Shown one piece after another: positions 3,201 to 39,449 of a stretch of 64,000 nt of DNA (its first letter is position 1; the number at the start of each line of letters is the position of its first letter). The notes beneath the pieces were generated by a model, which saw only the letters and a list, made by a program, of their open reading frames with translations, did no database searches and had not been told where the DNA came from. The DNA comes from Synechococcales cyanobacterium (GTDB lineage: Bacteria > Cyanobacteriota > Cyanobacteriia > CAKZMO01). The position numbers and the translations under genes are program-made. The stretch covers positions 5,040-69,039 of the forward strand of contig JAYKGU010000315.1 of assembly GCA_035285585.1 (NCBI GenBank). The letters run 5' to 3'.

Positions 3201-6200
3201 GTGACTTCTCAACGGGATCAATTACAAGCGCTTATTAAGAGAATTGACGATTTGCTGAAGCGCACCGACTCTCGGTCCGGCGTTCGGCTACCCGAAATGG
3301 GGGCAGAGCGCCAGGTACTGGCGCAAACCCGTGAGTACCTGAGCCGCCTGGAGCAGCAAATGGCGGGCGGGCAGCCCTTTCCCCAGCCCGATAACGGCAG
3401 CGCCCTGATGGCCCAAAATCAGCAGGGGTGGCAGGCTCCAGCGCCGCAGATGGCCGAAACGGCCCAGCAGGTGCTGCAGGCCATTGTGCAGGAAATGAGC
3501 TTCCTGCGCACCAACATGATGCAGCCGCTGCGGGAAGAGGTGATTCAGCTTCAGCAAGAGCGGCACTTGCTGACAACCGAGATTCAGCGACTGCAGCAAG
3601 AGCGCCAGCAGCTGGCGGCGTCGCCCCAGCTCAACCAGCAAAAAATGATCCAGGAGTTTCTGAAAACGCTGATGGGGCGGCTGCAGGAGCAGCTTGCAGG
3701 CCAGGTGGCCCAGGCGATCGCCAATCTGGAAGCCCAGGCGGCTCAAACCTACTCGCTCACTGGGGGGGCTGCCCCCCAACAAATCCAGGGCCAGTCCACG
3801 GCCCTGCCCCGCCTGTCTCCCGCCGAACGACTCAAGCACCTGCAGCGCTTACAGGCCCAGTCTGACGATTTACTGCTGCGGCTGGACTCGACCCTGCGCG
3901 TCGTTTTTGAATCGCTGCAAACTAACGTTACTAGCTACCAGGACTCCCTCGCTCAGGGCCTGGAAACCATGCAAAGCCTTGGTCAGCCTGGAGAAACCAT
4001 GTTTACCGCCCTGGTGAATCGGCTGGCCAATCAGCTGGGGCGGGAAGCCTCTTATTACCTCAAGTCGCCGCCGCCCACCGAGTGGGAACTGCCCGGTCTG
4101 GCCAGCACCGACCAGGGAACAGATATTTTACTGGCCAATTCACCTGCAGACCAGGCTGAACAGCCACCGACATCCTCCGTGGCGGCGTCTCAGAATGTCC
4201 AGGACGAGATCCCCGACGACCAGGTCAACCGCATCCTGGGAACGGCTGCGCCTGCACCCGCCTCGTCCGCGCCAGAAACAGCCGCCCCGATCAGCCACCC
4301 CCTCATCAACGATCTGCTCAACGACCTGGATGCAGACCTGGCTAACCTGAACCAGGAGGACGACCTGGAGCTAGACCTGGGCCTGGACAACCTGGATCTG
4401 GACGCCGCCAGCATCGATTTGGCCGATGAGCTGTCCGACGGGGACACACCCACGCCGCTTGCCGATGACCCGTCTCCCCTACCACCAGCCGCCGCGCCTC
4501 AGCCCCCTAGCATTGAGGTAAATGACCTGTTTAGTGAGCTGGGTGAGCTGAATGAATTGGATGCAGCACCTGATGTCGCCGATGTCCCCGCTGACGCTGC
4601 CCCCCCAGAAAGAATGCCCGGAGCAGTCGATGCCGAGACAGATGAGGCCCTGGCGTTGCTGAACCAGCTCGCTACCGAGATGGAGGATCAGTTAGATGAA
4701 TCACCCTGGGATAAGCCAGGGGAGGAGACGAGCGATCGCCCGTCGGAGGATAATCTATCTGAAATGGCCACCCAAAGCGATTGGGATGCCCTGGATGAAC
4801 CGCTCTATGGCGATCGCCCCGACCTCTATGCAGAATCATCTGGCCTTCTGAATAACGAAATTGACCACGCGATCAGCGACAGCTTTGAGGACGAACTTGA
4901 AGCCGAGCTTGAAGCCGAGCTTGAAACCGAGCTTGAAGACAAACCTGCAGCCGCAGCAGACGAGATCGATGATTTTTATGCCGTCTTCAACGCCGCTACC
5001 GGCAGCGATCCATTAAGCTCGGACGACGATATTGACTCCTATGATCTCGATCCAGATGACCTCGATTCCAAAGAGGGCCATCAGGAAATTGACTCAGAAG
5101 CCTCTCTCTCGAACCTGTTTGATGAAACGGCTGACGAAACGGCTGAGGAAGAGTTCTTCACTGCCTCAGCCGGGCAGCCCGACTGGAACCAAATCGGCGG
5201 CTCAGAGGAGGTGGAGACAATCCAGCGCCTGACGGATCTGGTGCCCGATGACCCCTTCCCTGACTCAGATATGTCCACTGAGCTGTCTGAGCTAGCCGCG
5301 GGCGATCGCTATACCAACGGTTCAGCAGACATTTATATCCAGGCCTCTCCCGATGAAGACCTGCTCTCAACCACAGATACGGCGCTCACATCGGCTGATT
5401 TTCAGCTCGACGACACCCTGATGCGCCAGCTTTCAGTGGATCTGTCAAGCCTGGAAGGGCTGGAAGACGTGGAAGACGTGGAAGATACGGGGCTGGCAGA
5501 AGGCCCACCCACCGCCGCCGAAGAAGACTGGGCGGCAGCGGCAGCTACCCTTGATGCTTTTAGCGATGAGCTGGGGCCGCAAATTTCCCCTGACGAATCG
5601 GCTTTTGCTGAGCAACCTTCCCCAGAACATGTCCCCGATGCGCCTCCCGAGGCAGAGGGATCTGGAGCTGACTCTAGCGAATTGAGCAACGGGATGACGC
5701 TAGACAGCTTTGCAGACCGGATTTGGCCGCCTGCTTCGATCCTGGCAGACGAAACAGATGCAAGCCCTGCCGCCTCAGCGCCAGCCAACCCATCTCTGGA
5801 AGGCACCATCGAGTCGCTGTTTGAAGATGAAGGCTGGAAAACCCTCTCCCAAAATGAACCTGGTTCAGCCAGCCACTCGGCTGCTATTTCCCAGGAGGAT
5901 TTGGGCCTTGATGGACTGTTTCAGACGGACGACGGGGATGATGCCCTGTCCGATCCTCCGGCAACCCCAGCGCGATCGCCCAACCGTCCCACCGATGATC
6001 CTGAGACGCTCACCTATCCCTCGGCCCAGCTCTTTGCGGATCTCTTCCCCACCCCATCAGTTCCGGCTGAAGGGGAGATGGGCGATCGCTTCGACATGAC
6101 CCTGGATGATTTCGGCATGGCCGCCGATCCCTGGGAAGAAGTACCCGCCAACCCATCACCCGCCGCCGATTCTGATACCGGAGCAGGAGAAGAAACGCTG

Positions 6201-6470
6201 ACCCGCGAGAGCATTGCCGCCCTATTTAGCGACTTACCGGAGGAAGCCCCTGGTGCGCCATCCCAGGGGGAAAGCCCGGAGCAAACCCTGGCCGATCTGC
6301 TGCGGAACCCTAACGCATCGGTGCCGGGGCGCGATCGCCCCCCTGAGACCATCGAATTCCCCTCCCCGGAAGGGCTGGATCGGGAGAACGACCTCGATCC
6401 TTTCTCCCTGCTTTTTGAGTCGCGGGATGTGGATACTCCCAGCGGCGAGGATACTGAAAAAAAAAACTAG
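3201..6470 (+). CDS. large coiled-coil / highly acidic low-complexity protein (N-terminal ~300 aa Q/L-rich heptad-like; C-terminal ~750 aa D/E/P/A-rich disordered)
   Basis: 1089-aa uninterrupted ORF, GTG start with AAGGA SD; internal 12-nt and 9-nt tandem repeats coding ELEA/VED; no recognisable enzymatic motif. Confidence 0.6.
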   Translation: MTSQRDQLQALIKRIDDLLKRTDSRSGVRLPEMGAERQVLAQTREYLSRLEQQMAGGQPFPQPDNGSALMAQNQQGWQAPAPQMAETAQQVLQAIVQEMSFLRTNMMQPLREEVIQLQQERHLLTTEIQRLQQERQQLAASPQLNQQKMIQEFLKTLMGRLQEQLAGQVAQAIANLEAQAAQTYSLTGGAAPQQIQGQSTALPRLSPAERLKHLQRLQAQSDDLLLRLDSTLRVVFESLQTNVTSYQDSLAQGLETMQSLGQPGETMFTALVNRLANQLGREASYYLKSPPPTEWELPGLASTDQGTDILLANSPADQAEQPPTSSVAASQNVQDEIPDDQVNRILGTAAPAPASSAPETAAPISHPLINDLLNDLDADLANLNQEDDLELDLGLDNLDLDAASIDLADELSDGDTPTPLADDPSPLPPAAAPQPPSIEVNDLFSELGELNELDAAPDVADVPADAAPPERMPGAVDAETDEALALLNQLATEMEDQLDESPWDKPGEETSDRPSEDNLSEMATQSDWDALDEPLYGDRPDLYAESSGLLNNEIDHAISDSFEDELEAELEAELETELEDKPAAAADEIDDFYAVFNAATGSDPLSSDDDIDSYDLDPDDLDSKEGHQEIDSEASLSNLFDETADETAEEEFFTASAGQPDWNQIGGSEEVETIQRLTDLVPDDPFPDSDMSTELSELAAGDRYTNGSADIYIQASPDEDLLSTTDTALTSADFQLDDTLMRQLSVDLSSLEGLEDVEDVEDTGLAEGPPTAAEEDWAAAAATLDAFSDELGPQISPDESAFAEQPSPEHVPDAPPEAEGSGADSSELSNGMTLDSFADRIWPPASILADETDASPAASAPANPSLEGTIESLFEDEGWKTLSQNEPGSASHSAAISQEDLGLDGLFQTDDGDDALSDPPATPARSPNRPTDDPETLTYPSAQLFADLFPTPSVPAEGEMGDRFDMTLDDFGMAADPWEEVPANPSPAADSDTGAGEETLTRESIAALFSDLPEEAPGAPSQGESPEQTLADLLRNPNASVPGRDRPPETIEFPSPEGLDRENDLDPFSLLFESRDVDTPSGEDTEKKN

Positions 6471-6511: not shown

Positions 6512-8407
6512 ATGCCCCCCGCCCTGGATGACTGGCCGCGAGAGGCGGGTGAGTCGCCCTGGTGCTTAGGGATCGACATCGGTACCACGGGCATCTCAGC
6601 GGTGCTGCTCCATCGCGTCGAGCGCCGTCTTTATCCGCTCTACTGGCAGCGACTGGAGGGTGCTTCAACGCCCCGATTGGGTCGCCGCTTTCGCCTCCCT
6701 GCTACCGTGCAGTATGTTCAGAATGGGCAGGGGGGAAGCCTCGACATTCTGGCCAGTTTTGCCGACCAGCCTCCCCAGGCCCCCCCCCATGGTTCCGCAA
6801 GCCTGCAGCTTGACAGCCTCAAGCCCTACCTCAATCTGGCCATTCCCCACTATTCACCTCAGACTGAACAGTGGGAGCCAGTGCTGCAGTGGTCCAACTC
6901 CCAGGCCATCACCCTCAGCTGGATTTACCAAACCCTGCTTTCGCTGCTGGCAACTCTGAATCAGCGATCGCCCTCCACGTCCCTCTGGCAAATGGCCCCA
7001 CGACCAATGCTGGTGTGTGGCGCAGTGGGGCTGGCGGATGAACAGCTTCATGAAGCCCTGCGTCAAACGGCGGTTGTCCTGGTGGGCTGTCCTGCTGACT
7101 GGACGGAGGCCTATCGGTTCAACATTCGGGAGGCTCTCTTGGGGGCACGGCTGGTGTCGCGGCCTCAGCAAGTTCTATTCGTAGACGAGGCGATCGCCAC
7201 CCTCCTGTCCGAGTTGCGCAGTGCCGATGCCCAACCCATTACCCTCCCCAGCCAGCTCTCCCACAAACCCCAGCTCTACAGCCGCGACTGGCAGGGCCAT
7301 ACGCTAATCATCAATGGCGGCGCAGCGGTAACCGAATTAGCCCTGGTCAATTTGCCTGGAGCCAACGACCCGCTCACCCACACGGCATTTCTCCGACGAA
7401 CCCTGCCCTATGCAGGCCACGCCCTCGACCAGGATATCGTCTGCCAGATTCTTTATCCGCTGCTGTGTAGCCGAGTGCCCGCCCAACAGGCACTGCAGGA
7501 CTTCCTCACCCAGCTCGATCTGGCGACGGTAGACTTTCCCTCCGTAGGGGAACCGGATTTAGTTAAGCGCCATCGGCTGCAGCAGCGGCTCCGGCAGTCG
7601 GCCCAGGGGCTGGAGTGTCTGGCGATCGCCCGCCGCCTGAAGGTTCACCTGCAGCACAAAACCGAAGATACCTTTGAACTAGCTGGGCAGACCTGGAGCG
7701 TCACCCGCCCGGATCTGGGCAGCCGAATCTTTTTACCCTACATCCAGCGGCTCAAGCGCGACATCAATGCGCTCCTGGAAAAACAAGACATCCAACCCGC
7801 AGCGATTCAGCAAATCATCTGTTCCGGTGGCACAGCCTCGCTGCGCATGGTGGCCCTCTGGCTACGGGAAAAGTTTGCCAACGCCACTATCGTACAAGAC
7901 ACCTATGGGGGCGATCGCCCTTCGCCCCACCACGATGCCCTGTCTACCTGCAGCCGCGTTGCCTATGGGCTGGCAGCCCTGCCGCTCCACCCCCACTTGC
8001 TGGAGTCCCTCCAGCAGACCTGCGAGCCTTATCATCTCCTGGCGCTGCTGCTGCAGATGCCTCCAGATGTGTCCCTATCTCTGGAGGCCATCCTCTCTTT
8101 TCTGCAGGAGCACGGCATTGATCCCGAACGGTGCCATCAGGAAGTGTTGGCCATTCTGGAGTCCCACCTGCCAGCCGGTCTGGTGCCCACCGCCCCTGAC
8201 CAGGTGCTGCTCACGGTGCCCTCCTGGGACTACATGCAAACCCAACTTTCCTCAGAGACGCCGCTGTTTCAGCCTATGGGCGATCGCCTCTACCATGCCA
8301 ATGCCCAACAGTGGCAGCGGCTGCATCGCTATTTACACTTGATTACCACCAGCACGCGGCAAAAGTTTTTTGATGCAGCAGGGGTCAGCTTTACGCTCCA
8401 TCGCTAG
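6512..8407 (+). CDS. divergent actin/Hsp70-fold (ASKHA) ATPase-like protein with C-terminal helical domain
   Basis: 631 aa; phosphate-1-like GIDIGTTGISAV near N-terminus, phosphate-2-like LIINGGAAVTEL, adenosine-motif-like IICSGGTASLRMV; 41-nt gap after preceding gene suggests operon. Confidence 0.55.
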   Translation: MPPALDDWPREAGESPWCLGIDIGTTGISAVLLHRVERRLYPLYWQRLEGASTPRLGRRFRLPATVQYVQNGQGGSLDILASFADQPPQAPPHGSASLQLDSLKPYLNLAIPHYSPQTEQWEPVLQWSNSQAITLSWIYQTLLSLLATLNQRSPSTSLWQMAPRPMLVCGAVGLADEQLHEALRQTAVVLVGCPADWTEAYRFNIREALLGARLVSRPQQVLFVDEAIATLLSELRSADAQPITLPSQLSHKPQLYSRDWQGHTLIINGGAAVTELALVNLPGANDPLTHTAFLRRTLPYAGHALDQDIVCQILYPLLCSRVPAQQALQDFLTQLDLATVDFPSVGEPDLVKRHRLQQRLRQSAQGLECLAIARRLKVHLQHKTEDTFELAGQTWSVTRPDLGSRIFLPYIQRLKRDINALLEKQDIQPAAIQQIICSGGTASLRMVALWLREKFANATIVQDTYGGDRPSPHHDALSTCSRVAYGLAALPLHPHLLESLQQTCEPYHLLALLLQMPPDVSLSLEAILSFLQEHGIDPERCHQEVLAILESHLPAGLVPTAPDQVLLTVPSWDYMQTQLSSETPLFQPMGDRLYHANAQQWQRLHRYLHLITTSTRQKFFDAAGVSFTLHR

Positions 8408-8922
8408 GAAATTACCGGAAATGGTCTGGTTGGTGTTGTAGGGGCAAATGGATTTGTCTTGAAAGTCCGTCGGCTCGGGATATTTTCTCTAGGAAAGTGC
8501 CTGAGACAGGGCCGCCTGCCAGGCTATCGGTAGTAAAACTGACATCCGTGGGAACTAGCGTCAGCGGGTTACACGGAGGCAGATGGTGGTTGTGGCAGAT
8601 CTCCATGGGGGGTTAGACCCCTCATAAGACTCTGCCAAGACCCTTGGAGATTCCACTGCCGGACTGAAGAGGTATAGCTTCTATCACATCTTTACAAAGG
8701 CCACATCGAATTCAAAGATTAGACAAATACCCGACATTTGCCTACCTGGATCCGAGAGACAATTCGTATATTTACGGAAAGACAATTTCATACCGCTTGC
8801 ACCAGTAGACATTCGTTTTACAAACTTCTCATCTAGCCTGTCATCATATATCTACTGCATCGGTCATCGTCGAAATATTAACCAGTCACCACCGAAAGGA
8901 AATTAAGAGATAAGGGCTTACC

Positions 8923-9723: not shown

Positions 9724-9964
9724 TGGTTGCCATAGAGCTAGACCTCCAAGTCGGCTCAGCTCAGGAAAGGTTCTGCTCCATTGAGGGACATCCGGAGCAT
9801 TACAGTCGTTCAATATAGAGTTTTGTTAAACTTTAGGTGTAAGCGCTGGATAATTGACCGGATTCTTGAATAGCTTCGAAGTAAGTACCAATAAGATTTT
9901 TCGGCAAAAAACTTAACAGGTACAGGTCAACTCCTGTTAACCTGGGTACACTTAATAAAATAAC

Positions 9965-10009
9965 GGTAAACACTGAGCCGGTAAACGCTGAGTCGGTAAA
10001 TGCTGAATC
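9965..10009. repeat. degenerate tandem repeat 3 x 15 nt (GGTAAAYRCTGARYC)
   Basis: read directly in AT-rich stretch. Confidence 0.6.
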
Positions 10010-14131: not shown

Positions 14132-15229
14132 TTACTTCTTCTTACCCTTTTTGCTACCGCCACTGCTGCCTTTCTTCCCGCCACTCTTTTTAGAAGGCTC
14201 TGAGAACCCAGCAGTCTTTTTGGGAGCGGCTTCCTTAGCGGAGGTATCCGATTCAGGGGCCTTCTCTTCTACGGGTGCCTCCGGCTCGGCGACGGCTGGC
14301 GATTCGGCTACTGCCTCTGGTTCAGGAGTAGCTTCCGGTTCAGCAGCAACCTCTACCTCCGGCTCAAGAGCAGCTTCGGGTTCGGGAGCCGCAACCTCTG
14401 CTTCGGCTTCAGGAATGGTTTCCGGCTCGGGAGCGGCAACTTCTGCTTCCGGCTCAGTAACAGCTTCGGGTTCGGGAGCGGCCTTAGCAGCGGCGGGTTC
14501 GGGTGCAGGAACAGGAGCCTCCGGGTCAGGAGCGACTTCAGGTTCAGCAGCAGGCTCAGGGGCCGGGGCAGTTTTCTTACCCGCCTGGGCAGCTACCTCA
14601 GCAGCGAAGTCTGTCTCCTCTTTCTCGATGCCCTCACCCAAAACGAAACGAGCAAAGCGACGCACCTGAATCTTCTCGCCAAGCTGGCCAGAGGTCGTCT
14701 TCACCAGTTCCTCAACGGTGATGCTCTGATCCCGGATGTAGGGCTGATCGAGCAGGGAAAGCTCCTGTAAACGCTTGCCAATGCGTCCCTCGACGATCTT
14801 CTCGCGGATGTTCTCTGGCTTATTTGCCAGATCGTCGCGTCCCATTTCGATTTCCTTTTCCTTTCGCACCGTTGCTTCAGGAATCTCGTCCGTGGAGACG
14901 TATTCCACGTTGGGGCAGGCGGCAATCTGCATGGCGATGTTCTTCACCAGATCCTGGAATTCCTCGTTGCGGGCAACGAAGTCAGTCTGACAGTTGACTT
15001 CCACCAGCACGCCAACCCGACCGCCGGTGTGAATGTAGCTGCCAACCAATCCCTCAGCAGCCACCTTACCTGCTTTTTTCTCGGCGGAAGCAATTCCCTT
15101 TTGGCGGAGCCACTCCGTCGCTTTCTCCATGTCGCCCCCAGTTTCGGTGAGGGCTTTTTTGCAATCCATCATACCCGCGCCAGTTTTTTCGCGCAGCTCT
15201 TTTACGAGTTTTGCCGATACTTCAGCCAT
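14132..15229 (-). CDS. tsf: elongation factor Ts with ~150-aa C-terminal Pro/Glu/Ala-rich and Lys-rich extension
   Basis: N-terminus [27 protein letters not shown] (UBA-like EF-Ts N domain); canonical core ~215 aa then PEPEA repeats and [19 protein letters not shown] tail. Confidence 0.9.
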
Positions 15230-23594: not shown

Positions 23595-24127
23595 TGCAGG
23601 TTTAGGGCGTAGTTATGGAATCAAAACTGGCTTAAATAATTACAGCCGGTTTACCTCCAACCGTCTTTGGGCATGGAGACCCGGACTTGCACCGTGGTAT
23701 CTGGGTTGATGGGCATTTGGCAACAGTGTGGCAACAGTTCTCCCTCAGACTAGCAAAAAGAACCCCCAGGGTTAAGCCAGGGTTAAGTTTGAGCCTGTTC
23801 CTTATCTTGTAGTCCCCTGTGTCCAGCATGTTGTCTTGAGATAAGAATCATTTCGAAGTATCAAGAAAGAATTCGGGTTTTCAATAACTTTCAGCGCTAA
23901 ATTCGTTGGCAAATAAAGCCCATCACGCCTGGGCCGAATATTACAAAAGTTCAGATCAATTTAAAGGTTATGGTTCCCGGAAAACGTCAAGATTTGCATC
24001 GCCAGATCTGACAATTTCCTTAAGACATTGCGCTCAACGGGACTCCTCATTAGAGAATTCGGCTAGCTAGAGTTGGACGCAACATGCGCTCTAGATGCCG
24101 CCCGTTTGTCACGTTGGGTATCAAGCA

Positions 24128-27100
24128 ATGAACACCAATCAACCGCCCGTTAAGCAGGGTCTTTATGACCCCCAATTTGAACACGATGCCTGCGGCGTCG
24201 GATTTGTCGTCCACATGAAGGGAGTCCAGTCCCACGCCATTGTCGAACAGGCGCTGACGATTTTGCTCAACCTGGAGCATCGCGGTGCGGTGGGGGCCGA
24301 ACCCAACACGGGTGACGGTGCTGGCATTTTGATGCAGGTGCCCCACAAGTTCATGACCAAAGTGGCGGCGATCGCCAACATCACCCTCCCCGCCCCTGGC
24401 CACTACGGCGTGGGCATGATTTTCGCCTCCCCCGATGCCGCCGCCCGCGAGCAGGGCCGCCGCGCCTTTGAGCAGGTGGTCGCCGCCGAGGGTCAGCAAG
24501 TCCTGGGCTGGCGCGACGTGCCCACCGACCATTCCTCCCTGGGGGAGACGGCACGGGCCAGCGAACCGTTTATGCAGCAGGTGTTTATTGGGCGATCGCC
24601 CGACGTAACCGACGAACTGGCCTTCGAGCGGAAGCTCTACATCATCCGCAAAATGGCCCACACCGCCATCCACTGCACGGGCATTGATACCTACTGGTAT
24701 CCCGCCAGCCTCTCCTGCCGCACGATTGTCTATAAGGGGATGCTGACCCCGGCCCAGGTGGGCGACTATTACCCGGATTTGAGCGATCCGGACCTGGAGA
24801 GCGCCCTGGGGCTGGTGCATTCCCGCTTCAGCACCAACACGTTCCCCAGTTGGGAGCGATCGCACCCTTACCGCTACATCGCCCACAACGGCGAGATCAA
24901 CACCCTGCGGGGAAATATTAACTGGATGCACGCCCGCCAGTCCCTCTTTGAGTCCGAGCTGTTTGGCGATGGCCTGAAGCGGGCCTATCCGCTGATCAAC
25001 ATTGAGGGCAGCGACTCCCTGATTTTTGACAATGCCCTGGAGCTGCTGACTTTGGCGGGGCGATCGCTCCCCCATGCGGTGATGATGATGATCCCCGAAC
25101 CCTGGACGGCCCACGAGTCCATGAGTGCGCAGAAGAAGGCGTTTTACAAATACCACTCCTGCCTGATGGAGCCGTGGGATGGTCCCGCCTCCATCGCCTT
25201 CACGGACGGCACCATGATGGGGGCAGTGCTGGATCGCAACGGTCTGCGGCCTTCCCGCTACTACGTCACCAAGGACGACCGGGTGATCATGGCGTCGGAG
25301 GCCGGGGTGCTGCCCGTGGAGCCGGAAAACGTGCTGAAGAAGGGCCGCCTGGAGCCGGGGCGCATGTTCCTGGTGGATATGGCGGCAGGGCGCATTGTGG
25401 CGGATGAGGAGATCAAGCAGCAGATTGTCTCCGAGCATCCCTACCAGGAATGGCTGGATCGGCACATGGTTTCCCTGGCGGATCTGCCTGACGCCATTAA
25501 TACGTCCGACGCCGTTAATACGTCCCACGACCGCGTAGGGGCACGGCATGCCGTGCCCCTACGCAACCCATCGCAACCCACCGGCATCCCGCAACCCACC
25601 GATATCACGCAACCCACCGGTATCACGGAACCCACCGATATCCCGCAACCCATCGACATCGCGGAACCCATCGGCATCACGGAACCCACCGATATCCCGC
25701 AACCCACCGACACCACGGAACCCACCGACATCACGGAACCAGCCAATATACCCCTACACCAGCGGCAGAAGGCATTCGGCTACACCTTTGAAGAACTGCG
25801 AATGCTGCTGACGCCGATGGCCCAAAACGGCGTGGAAGCAATCGGGTCGATGGGGACGGATACGCCCCTGGCAGTGTTGAGCGATCGCCCCAAGCTTCTT
25901 TACGACTACTTCCAGCAGCTTTTCGCCCAGGTGACCAACCCGCCCATCGACTCCATCCGCGAGGAAATCATCACCTCCCCGGAGACCACCATCGGCTCGG
26001 AGCGCAATTTGCTGAAGCCAGAGCCGGAAAGCTGCCATCTGATTGAGCTGAAAACTCCGGTGCTCACCAATGGAGAACTGGCGAAGCTGAAGGCCATTAA
26101 TCACGGGGATTTCAAGTCGGTCACTCTACCAATCCTGTTCGACCCCAAATTAGGTGTCGCCGGGCTGGAGACCCGGATGGACGCCATTTGTGCCGAGGCG
26201 GATGCGGCGATCGAGGATGGGAAGAGCGTGCTTATTTTGAGCGATCGCCCCCTCGATGCCGACCACGCCCCCATCCCCGCCCTGCTGGCCGTCGCAGGAC
26301 TGCACCACCACCTGATCCGCAAGGGCACCCGCACCCGTGTCGGCCTGGTGCTGGAGTCGGGCGAACCCCGCGAAGTCCATCATTTTGCCGTGCTGATTGG
26401 CTATGGCTGCGGGGCCATCAACCCCTACCTGGCCTTTGAGACCATCGACGCCATGATCCAGCAGAAGGAGCTGCTGAACGTGGATCTCAAAACCGCCTGC
26501 AAAAACTACATTAAGGCGGTGACTAAAGGGGTGATTAAGATCGCCTCCAAAATCGGCATCTCCACCATCCAGAGCTACCGGGGTGCCCAGATTTTCGAGA
26601 GCATCGGCCTCAACCAGGCAGTGATCGACAAGTACTTCACCTGGACGGCTTCCCGCATTGAGGGGGCGGATCTGGCGGTGATTACCCAGGAGGCCATCCT
26701 GCGCCACGCCCATGCCTTCCCCGGTCGGGAGGTGGAGGACACCACCCTGGACGTGGGCGGCGAATACCAGTGGCGCAAAGAGGGCGAACGTCACCTGTTC
26801 AGCCCCGAAGCCATCCACAGCCTCCAGCGAGCCGTGCGCGAAGGCGACTACGATCTCTACAAAAAATACGCTGCCCTAGTGAATGACCAGAGCAAGACCC
26901 ACTTCACCCTGCGGGGACTGCTGGACTTCAGAGCCAGAGAACCCATCCCCCTGGAGGAAGTGGAGTCTGTCGAGGAGATTGTCAAGCGGTTCAAGACCGG
27001 GGCCATGAGCTACGGGTCGATTTCCAAGGAGGCCCATGAGACGCTGGCGATCGCCATGAATCGCTTAGGCGGCAAGTCCAACACGGGCGAAGGCGGCGAA

Positions 27101-28945
27101 GACCCCGAACGCTACACCTGGACAAACGAGCAGGGCGACTCCAAAAACAGCGCCATCAAGCAGGTGGCCTCCGGTCGCTTTGGCGTCACCAGCCTCTACC
27201 TCTCCCAGGCGCGGGAAATCCAAATCAAAATGGCCCAGGGAGCCAAGCCCGGTGAAGGGGGGCAATTACCCGGACTCAAGGTCTACCCCTGGGTAGCCAA
27301 GGTGCGCCACTCCACCCCCGGCGTGGGCCTGATCTCGCCGCCGCCCCACCACGACATCTATTCCATTGAGGATCTGGCAGAACTGATCCACGACCTGAAG
27401 AATGCCAACCGGGAAGCCCGCATCAGCGTCAAGCTGGTATCAGAGGTGGGCGTCGGCACCATCGCCGCCGGAGTCGCCAAAGCCCACGCCGATGTGGTGC
27501 TGATCTCCGGCTTCGACGGCGGCACGGGCGCATCACCCCAGACCTCCATCAAGCACGCGGGACTCCCCTGGGAGCTAGGTCTGGCGGAAACCCACCAAAC
27601 CCTGGTGCTAAACAACCTCCGGTCGCGCATTGCCGTGGAAACTGATGGGCAGATGAAGACGGGGCGGGATGTGGCGATCGCCACCCTCCTGGGCGCTGAA
27701 GAGTACGGCTTCTCCACCGCGCCCCTGGTCTCCCTGGGCTGCATCATGATGCGGGTCTGCCACAAGAACACCTGCCCCGCCGGTATCGCCACCCAAAACC
27801 CCGTCCTCCGGCAAAACTTTGTGGGCGATCCCCAGCACACCGTCCACTTCATGCGGTTCGTCGCTCAAGAACTGCGGGAAATCATGGCAGAACTGGGCTT
27901 CCGCTCCATCAACGAGATGGTGGGCCGCACTGATGTGCTGGAAGCCAAGCAAGCCGTGGATCACTGGAAGGCCAAGGGCATCGACCTGTCCAAGATCCTC
28001 CACCAGCCGCAGGTGGGCGCAGACATCGGGCGCTACTGCCAGATTCCCCAGGATCACGGGCTGGACAAGTCCCTGGACATGACCACCCTGTTGGACCTGT
28101 GCCGCCCCGCCATCGAAAGCGGCGAGCCGGTCAGCGCCACCCTCCCCATCTGCAACATTAACCGGGTGGTGGGCACCATCCTCGGCAACGAAATCACCAA
28201 GCGCCACTGGGACGGCTTGCCCGAAGACACGGTACGGCTCCACTTCCAGGGCAGCGCCGGACAGAGCTTCGGCGCATTTGTCCCCAAAGGGGTGACGCTG
28301 GAACTGGAAGGGGACGCCAACGACTACTTTGGCAAGGGACTCAGCGGCGGCAAGCTGATCATCTACCCCCCCAGCGGCTCCACCTTCGTGCCGGAGGAGA
28401 ACATCATCATCGGCAACGTCGCCTTCTACGGCGCGACCGGGGGCGAAGCCTACATCTCTGGCGTGGCTGGGGAGCGGTTCTGCGTCCGCAACTCTGGCGT
28501 CCGCACGGTGGTGGAAGCGGTGGGCGACCACGCCTGCGAATACATGACCGGCGGCAAGGTAGTGATTCTCGGCCAGACCGGGCGCAACTTCGCGGCAGGC
28601 ATGAGCGGCGGCATCGCCTATGTACTGGATGAGGCGGGCGATTTCCCCACCCGCTGCAACACCCAGATGGTCGATCTGGAGCAGTTGGCGGACCCCGAAG
28701 AAATTCGCGAAATCCACGACCTGATCCAGAAGCACGCGGACTACACCCAGAGTCAGCGTGCCAAGACAATTCTGGAAAATTGGGAGAGTCTAATTCCCAA
28801 GTTCGTGAAGGTGATGCCCCGCGACTACAAGCGAGTGCTGCAACACATCCAGAAAGCCCTGGCGGACGGCCTCAGCGGCGACGATGCCCTTGCCGCCGCC
28901 TTCGAGGAAAATGCCCGCGACATTGCCCGCATTGGCGGTAGTTGA
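24128..28945 (+). CDS. gltB: glutamate synthase large subunit (NADH-GOGAT alpha)
   Basis: propeptide then [11 protein letters not shown] Ntn-amidotransferase start; FMN and 3Fe-4S central/synthase domains; GXGXG C-terminal domain; paired with gltD downstream. ORF opens at 24095, start chosen at Met 11 aa before Cys. Confidence 0.9.
25533..25564. repeat. 32-nt perfect palindrome GCGTAGGGGCACGGCATGCCGTGCCCCTACGC lying in-frame inside gltB
   Basis: read directly; member of TAGGGGCA..TGCCCCTA family (also 28955, 38892). Confidence 0.85.
25564..25752. repeat. in-frame 18-nt tandem repeat (~10 units, CAACCCACCGRYATCNCG) encoding hexapeptide repeats PTDIxQ/PTGITE within gltB
   Basis: read directly; units start 25574,25592,25610... 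; translated ...[32 protein letters not shown]... Confidence 0.85.
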
Positions 28946-28954
28946 TGCACCTGA

Positions 28955-28985
28955 GGTAGGGGCAAGGCAATGCCTTGCCCCTACC
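28955..28985. repeat. 31-nt palindrome GGTAGGGGCAAGGCAATGCCTTGCCCCTACC 10 nt after gltB stop
   Basis: read directly; same family as 25533 and 38892. Confidence 0.85.
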
Positions 28986-29027
28986 TGAAATCAATGGGAT
29001 GAGATTAGAAGGTGAGAAGCAAAACCA

Positions 29028-29435: not shown

Positions 29436-30916
<1,481 letters not shown>

Positions 30917-30920
<4 letters not shown>

Positions 30921-31825: not shown

Positions 31826-31961
31826 AACATCCTCATAATTTGCTACAGCCGTGGCGGTTCCAGTTGATGGCTGTTGTAGCAAATTTATGGGGGCGATCGC
31901 TAGCGAGGAATTTCCCGAACGTCTCACTATTAAAGGCGTTCGGGTCATTTTACTGTTGGTT

Positions 31962-32024
31962 GGGGCGAAGCATTCGGTAGATACTTTTGGATGTATCCAA
32001 AGAACTTTGGCCGAATGCTTCGCC
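31962..32024. other. long composite hairpin: 15-bp outer stem GGGCGAAGCATTCGG/CCGAATGCTTCGCCC enclosing inner 7-bp stem TTTGGAT/ATCCAAA
   Basis: read directly; lies at 3' end of 90-aa ORF on minus strand. Confidence 0.7.
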
Positions 32025-32025
32025 C

Positions 32026-32298
32026 TTACCGGTTAGATTTGCGACCTCCAGGCGGTGTGCGGTGGGGGCCAAAATATTTTTCGCTACGATACCGCAACCA
32101 GACGCGGAGCTGTTGGGGAATTTGGTCTTTCTGCTCCGGGGTGAGGGTGTTGTAGAGGGTTAGGGCCTTTTCTCGCTCGCCTCGGCAGGCGCGATTGTTG
32201 TGGGCATCCCAGTAGGAGCGGGCCACGCGGATGCGGCGACACACCTCTTTGACTAGGGTGTCACCGCTCAGGGGTTCGTCGGATTTCCGTTTTGCCAT
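32026..32298 (-). CDS. small basic hypothetical protein directly downstream of ispH (exact 3' end uncertain by a few nt)
   Basis: ATG 1 nt after ispH stop; Arg/Lys-rich; no family recognised. Confidence 0.35.
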   Translation of the reverse strand: MAKRKSDEPLSGDTLVKEVCRRIRVARSYWDAHNNRACRGEREKALTLYNTLTPEQKDQIPQQLRVWLRYRSEKYFGPHRTPPGGRKSNR

Positions 32299-37518: not shown

Positions 37519-38118
37519 AATGCGGGCTGAAGGTTTTTAGGGAGATTTTTAATATCAAAGCCTGTCGTTATTTCTTAATTTTTTCTTGCTTTAAAGAATA
37601 TGTAAGACAAAGACAAAGGTTTAGATGTGCGATCGCTCAACGCTTAGTTACTGCATCTAAACAGGTCAGCTTTATTCCCACTAAAATTCATTATTTAAAT
37701 TTTATTGTTCAATCGCTAATCCTACTGGCTCAGATTGTTAAACTTCCCTAACTTTTGTTGCAAATCTTTTATTTTCGTCCTTGAAGCGCCTACCCGAAAA
37801 CCCCCTCAGTTTTTTGGCAGCCAAAACTTCAAGCGCTTTGTTGGATAGGTTCCAAAGGAGAAGGTTAACCGGGCGATCGCTTCGCCAATTCTCCCCCAGT
37901 CGCCACAAAATAGCTGCAGATACAAGGTACTCCATCCAAAATCCCCTGAGCACCTCCAAAAGGCAGAATCACAGGGCAATTGACGACAGCACAGTGGAGG
38001 TTTGGGAAAGGGCATTTTGGAAAAAGATCTAAACTCCGACCGGAAAACCGGGGTTTATGGCATCATAAGGGGCAGGATAGATGTTTACGCTATTTCAAAC
38101 CTAGAGGAAACGACACCA

Positions 38119-38756
38119 TGACACTTCAGTTAGGGGACACCGTCCCAAACTTTACTCAGCAATCATCCGAGGGAGAAATCAACTTCTACGACTGGGCAGG
38201 CGATAGCTGGGTTGTCCTGTTCTCCCACCCCGCCGACTATACGCCTGTTTGCACCACCGAGTTGGGCGAAGTTGCCAGGCTCAAGCCCGAATTCGACAAG
38301 CGAAATGCCAAGGTAATCGCCCTCAGCGTAGATGATGCTGAATCCCACATGGGCTGGATTAATGACATCAACGAAACCCAAAAAACCTCGGTTAACTATC
38401 CGATTCTGGCGGACAACGATAAGCAGGTTTCTGAGCTGTATGGCATGATTCACCCCAATGCCAACGCATCGCTGACAGTGCGCACGGTATTCGTAGTTGA
38501 TCCCAACAAAAAGCTGCGCCTGACCCTCACCTATCCCCCCAGCACGGGCCGCAATTTTGAGGAAATTTTGCGCGTTATTGATTCACTACAGTTGACCGAC
38601 AACTTCAGTGTCGCTACCCCTGTTAACTGGAAAGATGGCGATGACTGTGTAATCGTACCGTCGCTCAAAGATCCTGAGGTATTAAAGGAAAAATTCCCCA
38701 AGGGCTACACCGAAGTAAAGTCTTATCTACGGATGACGCCACAGCCCAACAAATAA
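38119..38756 (+). CDS. 1-Cys peroxiredoxin (Prx6-like)
   Basis: MTLQLGDTVPNF...FSHPADYTPVCTTELG peroxidatic Cys motif; ORF opens at 37980. Confidence 0.85.
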
Positions 38757-38808: not shown

Positions 38809-38850
38809 GGGGTGTACTTCCCGGTGGGAGGCGCACCCCGCTTGTTTTTC
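38809..38850 (+). terminator. rho-independent terminator (GGGGTG-loop-CACCCC + GCTTGTTTTT)
   Basis: 6-bp GC stem then T-run ~55 nt after peroxiredoxin stop. Confidence 0.55.
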
Positions 38851-38891: not shown

Positions 38892-38929
38892 AACCTGTAG
38901 GGGCATGGAATTCCATGCCCCTACAGGTT
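38892..38929. repeat. 38-nt perfect palindrome AACCTGTAGGGGCATGGAA|TTCCATGCCCCTACAGGTT between convergent genes
   Basis: read directly; family TAGGGGCA..TGCCCCTA. Confidence 0.85.
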
Positions 38930-38966: not shown

Positions 38967-39449
38967 TCAAGCCGCCGCCAGGGTTTGGGAAAGAGGCTGC
39001 CAGCGGAAGGTGCGATCGCCCCCCATTTCAACCACAACCTTAATCCGTGGCTCGATCTGCGGCAGGGCAGTCAAAAATTCTAGCTCCTGACGCGACAAAA
39101 TCATGCCCTCCAGCAACCAGATCACCAGGCCCTTCGATTGGGGCGGGAGCTGCTCAAGCTGGTAAGTGGCCGCCGGGGGCAGGTAATAGCGGTAGCCCAC
39201 TGCCGCCCCGGTACCGATATCTTTCTTTCCCAGGTGGGGTGGACGCACCCCATGGACATCAAGCAGGTAGGCAGAAACATCGCCCAATCCGCGCGATGCC
39301 AGATGCAACATGCCATATCCGGCTGCCCTCAGGCGACGCTGATAGCGCCCTTCGTACCCCCCTTCTAGAGGCACGTAGACCGCCAGGGCACCCGCACTTT
39401 CCAGATCTTTCGCAAACCTTTTACCGGTCACGATTAATGCCATCGCCAA
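38967..39449 (-). CDS. hypothetical protein (160 aa)
   Basis: ORF only; no motif recognised. Confidence 0.4.
   Translation of the reverse strand: MAMALIVTGKRFAKDLESAGALAVYVPLEGGYEGRYQRRLRAAGYGMLHLASRGLGDVSAYLLDVHGVRPPHLGKKDIGTGAAVGYRYYLPPAATYQLEQLPPQSKGLVIWLLEGMILSRQELEFLTALPQIEPRIKVVVEMGGDRTFRWQPLSQTLAAA

Follow-up and report, generated by a model that had tools for sequence, protein, structure and literature searches.

In a 64,000-nucleotide stretch of DNA from a Synechococcales cyanobacterium (assembly GCA_035285585.1, contig JAYKGU010000315.1, positions 5,040 to 69,039 of the forward strand; hereafter the window, whose own numbering is used unless another locus is named), three perfect palindromes are found, one of which lies in frame inside gltB, the gene for the large subunit of glutamate synthase. 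[quoted passage not shown] This identity is proposed because the copies have feet of GTAG...CTAC, a stem with a GGGG/CCCC base and a perfect palindrome of 28-29 bp, and because the same motif is catalogued in the subclass-2.4 REPtrons of Table S1 in PMC6006769. Co-location with Y1 transposase genes, host range, covariation and the presence and absence of the element at gltB point the same way, as do a long REP of subclass 2.4 in the window and the 3'-end positions of two of the copies. The sequences and coordinates given for the three palindromes in the original prediction were confirmed on re-reading the window:

25535-25562, no strand assigned: REP copy 1, GTAGGGGCACGGCATGCCGTGCCCCTAC, with palindromy out to 25533-25564, translated within gltB as VGARHAVPL(R)
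28956-28984, no strand assigned: REP copy 2, GTAGGGGCAAGGCAATGCCTTGCCCCTAC, with palindromy out to 28954-28986, upstream of a DUF433 open reading frame (ORF) and gltD
38897-38924, no strand assigned: REP copy 3, GTAGGGGCATGGAATTCCATGCCCCTAC, with palindromy out to 38892-38929, between a peroxiredoxin gene and ndhN, which are convergent

The core common to the three copies is 28-29 bp long and consists of GTAGGGGCA, a self-complementary centre of 10-11 nt, and TGCCCCTAC. GTAG opens and CTAC closes every copy, and the stem (GGGGCA.../...TGCCCC, 12-14 pairs) stands directly at this foot; outside the core, a further 2, 2 and 5 locus-specific bases in copies 1, 2 and 3, respectively, are still palindromic. 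The centres vary among the window copies yet remain self-complementary, copy 2 having a single unpaired central A. When folded as RNA, each copy reaches -33 to -35 kcal/mol, with z-scores of -5.3 to -8.2. The pattern TAGGGGCA-N(4-20)-TGCCCCTA has three matches in the window compared to none in 100 dinucleotide-preserving shuffles, and no further degenerate copies are present in the 64-kb window at up to three mismatches. A lone GTAGGGGCAAAT half-site is also seen at 8438-8465, 30 nt past the end of the ORF at 6512-8407; it has TAGGGGCA at 8439 with no partner arm and is followed by the weakly complementary ATTTGTCTTGA; a decayed REP or chance may account for it.

In comparing these copies to published elements, the closest match is found in the double-foot REPs, which carry GT[AG]G at the 5' end and C[TC]AC at the 3' end and belong to TnpA_REP subclass 2.4 (Quentin et al. 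2018, PMC6006769). Table S1 of that study lists GTAGGGGCACGGCATTGCCGTGCCC and GTAGGGGCAAGGCAGTGCCTTGCCC from Calothrix, whose stems are those of copies 1 and 2 in the window, as well as GTAGGGGCAATTCATGAATTGCCCCTAC from Chlorobium and GTAGGGGCACAGCGCGCTGTGCCCCTAC from Chloroflexus, both being 28-mers of the form GTAGGGGCA...TGCCCCTAC. The window copies have in common with them the feet, the GGGGC(A/G) stem and a perfect palindrome of 28 nt, as well as the hosts (Cyanobacteria, Chloroflexi, Chlorobi and scattered phyla) and the occurrence of in-frame copies in genes. No structural difference is apparent from the material covered in that paper, and an insertion in the gltB linker is not among the cases found there. 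The original prediction was not aware of a described equivalent for the motif; an equivalent does exist, given the same stems in this table and the in-frame REPs reported by Di Nocera et al. (2013, PMC3733652).

The latter paper describes a superfamily of GTAG-tagged REPs, including the cyanobacterial families GTAG-12, GTAG-15 and GTAG-16, which resemble the window copies in their GTAG tag, stem-loop, preference for the 3' side of genes and in-frame copies. In that superfamily the tag is unpaired at one end, whereas in the window GTAG pairs with CTAC and palindromy continues for 2-5 nt beyond it; this pairing is the double-foot variant, which was defined after PMC3733652 appeared. The string GTAGGGG is absent from those supplements of PMC3733652 that were checked, and a literature search with the raw motif returned 16S rRNA and primer coincidences only.

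REPINs (Bertels and Rainey 2011, PMC3116915) are likewise composed of two inverted REP halves that form one long hairpin and are presumed to be a unit mobilized by a RAYT, and the account in PMC6006769 allows a double-foot REP to be viewed as a REPIN minus its spacer, with an origin suggested by deletion within an inverted REP dimer. Unlike the window copies, REPINs in groups 2 and 3 are built with a spacer and imperfect arms and number in the hundreds in Proteobacteria. RAYT group 4 is accompanied by only a modest abundance of flanking 16-mers.

A fourth element belonging to the same transposase subclass is present in the window:

31959-32029, plus strand: canonical long REP, GTTG-GGGCGAAGCATTCGG, a 33-nt spacer and CCGAATGCTTCGCCC-TTAC, intergenic between two minus-strand ORFs

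This long REP resembles the REP of an Anabaena cylindrica subclass-2.4 REPtron in Table S1 of PMC6006769 and is the other REP type of subclass 2.4. The 64-kb window thereby holds three double-foot copies and one long REP, where none would be expected.

To place the copies in a wider family, one genome per GTDB species was scanned with the pattern GTAGGGGCA-N(8-13)-TGCCCCTAC, which gave at least 118 loci, referred to here by L numbers. Approximately 35 of the matches listed are cyanobacterial and approximately 30 come from Chloroflexota, with the rest scattered over many phyla, and this host range agrees with the one published for RAYT group 4. No nucleotide match to the window was obtained among the 118 loci listed. 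The centre is perfectly self-complementary in 88 of the 121 copies listed. Among the same matches, the 28-mer of copy 1 recurs without change in Dehalococcoidia, Gemmatimonadales, Planctomycetota and Caldilineaceae loci, and the 29-mer of copy 2 is identical in a Leptolyngbyaceae metagenome-assembled genome at a non-orthologous site (L091).

An alignment of the 36 distinct 28-mers from the matches listed displays how strongly the two arms change together: 96.6% of cells pair, compared to 34-48% for slid partners, and double-sided changes number 67 against 18.5 +/- 4.5 in shuffles, with 0 of 500 shuffles reaching the observed value. The proposal that the palindromes form a dispersed repeat family whose variation is compensatory is thus borne out by strong covariation across the family. 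The accompanying claim that such changes indicate selection on a hairpin or cruciform can be kept only in part, as the symmetry is real but its interpretation was overstated: the two innermost pairs are complementary in 29-30 of the 36 sequences, though within a hairpin loop they would be unable to pair. What is seen is the symmetry of a duplex palindrome and not of the stem alone. As these unpairable innermost positions are usually complementary, the way in which the element originates, or its recognition on both strands, may account for the symmetry no less well than selection.

A separate observation concerns the surroundings of the copies. Of the 121 listed, 14 are centred in longer locus-specific inverted repeats of 6-19 nt, compared to approximately 0.03 expected, and all three copies of the Chamaesiphon locus L048 (1614-1641, 1838-1865 and 2444-2471) are centred in inverted repeats of this kind. 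These outer repeats suggest insertion into hairpin tips or an inverted duplication of the flanks, and no description of them around double-foot REPs was found in the literature searched.

The association with transposases is seen in five of the loci listed (L015, L051, L063, L087 and L048), each of which contains a Y1 transposase gene. The five proteins score 29-35 bits against Pfam Y1_Tnp (cut-off 23), their motifs PNH[VIMF]H, WQRNYYE and YIxxNP fit subclass 2.4, and in NCBIfam they match best to the REP-associated tyrosine transposase (REP_Tyr_transpos). In four of them the 28-bp palindrome lies in frame within the gene, just past the HUH motif (L015:7757-7784, L051:661-688, L063:2208-2235 and L087:6099-6126); two reading frames are used by these in-gene palindromes, one giving VGARYIVPLQ. 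In the fifth, the cyanobacterial locus L048 from Chamaesiphon, three copies flank the transposase gene. This in-gene or flanking arrangement is what has been published as the hallmark of subclass 2.4.

On the model of E. coli TnpA_REP and the IS200/IS605 elements, the hairpins would be recognized as single-stranded DNA by a Y1 (HUH) RAYT. Two copies stand at the usual REP sites just 3' of genes, and the third has landed in the linker of the NADH-type glutamate synthase subunit GltB. Several points speak against this account. The REP_Tyr_transpos scores, as measured on two of the proteins (L063 and L048), are 58-70 bits and fall below the curated cut-off of 80; no RAYT gene was detected in the 64-kb window by phmmer or tblastn; the boundaries of the insertion in gltB are definable approximately and not to the base; and, to our knowledge, the mobilization of double-foot REPs by subclass-2.4 enzymes is a prediction from E. 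coli TnpA_REP and from co-location.

The positions of the copies relative to genes can be read from the following features, of which gltB is an intact ORF containing all four Pfam domains:

24095-28945, plus strand: gltB, NADH-type glutamate synthase large subunit, 1616 aa
29028-29351, strand not stated: DUF433 ORF, separating gltB and gltD in the window
29436-30920, strand not stated: gltD-like small subunit, following gltB
37980-38756, plus strand: peroxiredoxin gene, convergent with ndhN
38967-39449, minus strand: ndhN, convergent with the peroxiredoxin gene

Copies 2 and 3 lie near the 3' ends of genes with unidirectional or convergent neighbours, and copy 1 is intragenic. The GTAG of copy 2 begins 10 nt past the gltB stop codon and copy 3 falls between the plus-strand peroxiredoxin gene and the minus-strand ndhN, in agreement with the original prediction, which put them past the gltB stop and between convergent genes. 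REPs are documented to favour positions 3' of genes that are unidirectional or convergent, intragenic copies being a documented minority (PMC3733652).

Such positions might also be expected of structural elements selected by the host, whether terminators, 3' mRNA stabilizers or cruciform and protein-binding sites, which would not be mobile and whose similarity would reflect a shared function. This is an unlikely explanation for the three palindromes, although copies 2 and 3 have very stable folds and are found just downstream of genes, and a short U run follows copy 3 on the minus strand, after ndhN. E. coli REPs stabilize upstream mRNA, and by this analogy a secondary role as mRNA stabilizers is possible for copies 2 and 3 and would be compatible with their being double-foot REPs. 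The reading as canonical intrinsic terminators was dropped, as none of the three was called by a consensus scan; a U tract is lacking at copy 2, the peroxiredoxin gene has a terminator-like site of its own at 38823-38842, and an end of transcription at copy 1, within an ORF, would be harmful. A known RNA family was likewise discarded, there being no Rfam match in the whole window. Furthermore, the 9-nt GTAGGGGCA is invariant across phyla and occurs in or beside RAYT genes, which is unexpected for generic hairpins.

The gltB gene of the window encodes an NADH/NADPH-type large subunit, since it is followed by a gltD-like gene and, among solved structures, is most closely related to Bacillus GltA and not to the Synechocystis ferredoxin enzyme. 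Cyanobacteria usually also carry a ferredoxin glutamate synthase, and the description of this gltB as an essential gene is therefore not established. Copy 1 lies in frame between Pfam GATase_2 (residues 33-453) and Glu_syn_central (residues 556-840), so that the ORF and the domain placement confirm its predicted location in the linker that joins the amidotransferase domain to the central one. A hairpin-like match in gltD (29741-29765) was rejected, as it merely represents the conserved codons of the TGRVCPAPC cluster.

The palindrome is only part of a lineage-specific expansion of the linker by 78 aa, most of which consists of 18-nt tandem repeats:

25508-25741 (approximate bounds), plus strand: lineage-specific linker expansion of approximately 78 aa (234 nt), comprising the DAVNTS duplication, the REP segment and PTDIT(E/Q) units
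25490-25529, plus strand: 18-nt tandem repeat, 2.2 copies, directly 5' of REP copy 1
25572-25740, plus strand: 18-nt tandem repeat, 9.4 copies with 84% matches, directly 3' of the REP, with units resembling the ancestral EPANIP codons

Measured from PYxxW to FGYT, the linker has 106 aa in the window GltB. In 102 of 107 protein orthologs, as in the majority of 30 orthologous DNA loci, it spans 29-31 aa; against solved structures, the window protein has approximately 78-80 extra residues between the two domains. The entire expansion keeps an 18-nt register in which DAINTS is duplicated once (as DAVNTS), followed by a 51-nt REP segment and about ten PTDIT(E/Q)-like hexapeptides. In a reconstruction from the sequence, deleting 78 residues would restore exactly the canonical linker of 30 aa. 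The insert is absent from all of the approximately 107 protein orthologs and approximately 30 orthologous DNA loci, an alignment which supports the idea that the gltB copy is lineage-specific, and a metagenome scan with the insert peptide returned no relative that carries it. A look-up of GltB and GltD as exact proteins was likewise negative, which may in part be due to other start-codon calls. The entry P0110, which seemingly covers the insert, was rejected as a duplicated, artefact-like fragment that has no homology to it.

The nearest relatives (L121 and L122, 79% identical in nucleotides over gltB and gltD) lack a REP in the gltB linker, which there measures 45 aa and contains a different small tandem repeat. 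Given these linkers and a T/A-rich run in the gltB linker of L124, the linker is unstable in length in the clade of the window. REP copy 1 is perfectly palindromic whereas the flanking repeats have diverged; it is either younger than these repeats or kept homogeneous. The flanking hexapeptides look like slipped-strand duplications of ancestral linker codons (DAINTS and EPANIP). Survival of the copy in gltB may have been permitted by a linker that tolerates changes in length, an insert length that keeps the frame, and REP frames that are free of stops; the frames VGAxxxxPL and RGxxxxAPT have no stop codon and are both used in real genes, and the third contains TAG. An AlphaFold model of a 300-aa fragment, poor overall with a mean pLDDT of 52.8, gives the insert a pLDDT of 37-47 and no secondary structure, and would be weakly consistent with an insert that is disordered and tolerated.

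The published range for in-frame REPs is 10-30 encoded aa, with clusters of up to 82 aa (PMC3733652). Outside gltB, in-frame copies of the window motif are also observed in other real genes, typically between domains:

L018:2883-2910, strand not stated: purL, just before the FGAR-AT linker domain
L055:3085-3112, strand not stated: Ser/Thr kinase, between Pkinase and AAA_16
L011:1226-1253, strand not stated: DUF2851 protein
L026:1156-1184, strand not stated: PfaD-like enoyl reductase

Tandem repeats are found elsewhere in the window at 14342-14482, 4885-4944 and 9964-10006 (periods of 45, 24/12 and 15 nt, respectively), at least the first two lying within long ORFs; in-frame repeat expansion in this genome is therefore not restricted to gltB.

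REPs of other families are seen at gltB in other cyanobacteria. In the cyanobacterial locus L119, a JGI contig of 3.45 Mb, a different double-foot REP, GTAGAGACGTTGCATGCAACGTCTCTAC, lies in the gltB linker at 6379-6406 and is translated as VETLHATSLQ, and in a relative, L120, the linker holds a degenerate version of 26 nt, GTAGAAACCAGCGATGGTGCGTCTAC, at 344-369. In L121, a nested cluster of a third family occupies 6565-6686, directly past the stop codon of gltB, the position held by copy 2 in the window; its arms, GTAGGATGGGCAAAG and CTTTGCCCATCCTAC, enclose further GATGGGCAAAGG half-copies, and the DUF433 ORF that stands between gltB and gltD in the window is absent. The three families are distinguished by GTAGGGGCA in the window, GTAGAGACG in the L119 and L120 linkers and GTAGGATGGGCA after the stop in L121. 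It is conceivable, though rather doubtful, that REPs land non-randomly, with the gltB linker and 3' flank being recurrent sites for different double-foot families in cyanobacteria, and that a REP hairpin may promote slippage that leads to in-frame peptide repeats. What is new in these observations is modest, and consists of a REP set between two in-frame 18-nt arrays in a linker extended by 78 aa, another cyanobacterium with a different double-foot REP in the gltB linker, and a nearest relative with yet another REP right after the gltB stop.

The repeat-prone state of this linker also bears on whether the palindrome was inserted at all. A birth in place by template switching would be in keeping with the instability of the linker in this clade, as seen in the 45-aa linkers with another repeat in the nearest relatives and the T/A-rich run of L124, and with the degenerate REP-like sequence of L120 at the site where L119 has a perfect REP. 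However, the 28-mer of copy 1 is identical to copies in unrelated phyla, for which reason an independent local origin is implausible, and its stem matches the two other window copies; we regard this origin as extremely unlikely.

Movement by a route independent of RAYTs, either as small dispersed repeats (SDRs) of the Nostoc type through RNA or another transposase, or as remnants of the terminal inverted repeats of miniature inverted-repeat transposable elements, is in turn a very improbable source of the window copies. SDR1-8 of Nostoc punctiforme are said, in 2008 work attributed to Elhai and colleagues, to be repeats of 21-27 nt with compensatory changes that often lie within tandem repeats and are nested in one another, and movement through RNA was reportedly proposed for them; we know of no association of SDRs with GTAG tags or RAYTs. 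The likeness is one of description and not of sequence, and extends to small cyanobacterial repeats, compensatory changes and a tandem-repeat setting: the gltB copy is set in tandem repeats, and the L121 cluster is a nested REP-in-REP arrangement. Against such a route, the copies agree exactly in foot and stem with REPs listed for REPtrons and co-locate with Y1 transposases, and the window copies have neither target-site duplications nor a longer surrounding element.

A further comparison, offered in the original prediction, is to the Rickettsia palindromic elements (RPEs), which are similarly selfish palindromic repeats translated as an extra peptide in an intact conserved protein. RPE-1 measures approximately 100-150 bp and is confined to Rickettsia, and we know of no RAYT link for RPEs. 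The comparison is apt as an analogy, the likeness being functional and based on the literature, and does not imply membership. RPEs are cited as a precedent in PMC3733652, which assigns RPE-4 and RPE-6, both short, to the CGTC type.

Apart from the REPs, the window is marked as cyanobacterial by ndhN and by an abundance of the HIP1 octamer: GCGATCGC is present 104 times in the 64 kb compared to 1.5 times expected, as is typical of HIP1-rich cyanobacteria.

As the element class, the motif, the transposase link and the in-frame REPs have all been published, the identification of the three palindromes as double-foot REPs carries little weight as a discovery. Its use is rather as an annotated example of a conserved metabolic enzyme that tolerates 78 aa of REP and slipped hexapeptides in a linker, and the unrelated REP families at the same two gltB positions offer material on the site preference of RAYTs and on protein repeats seeded by REPs. 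In addition, where predicted proteins show stretches like VGARHAVPL or RGTxxRAPT, these are to be read as REP-encoded.

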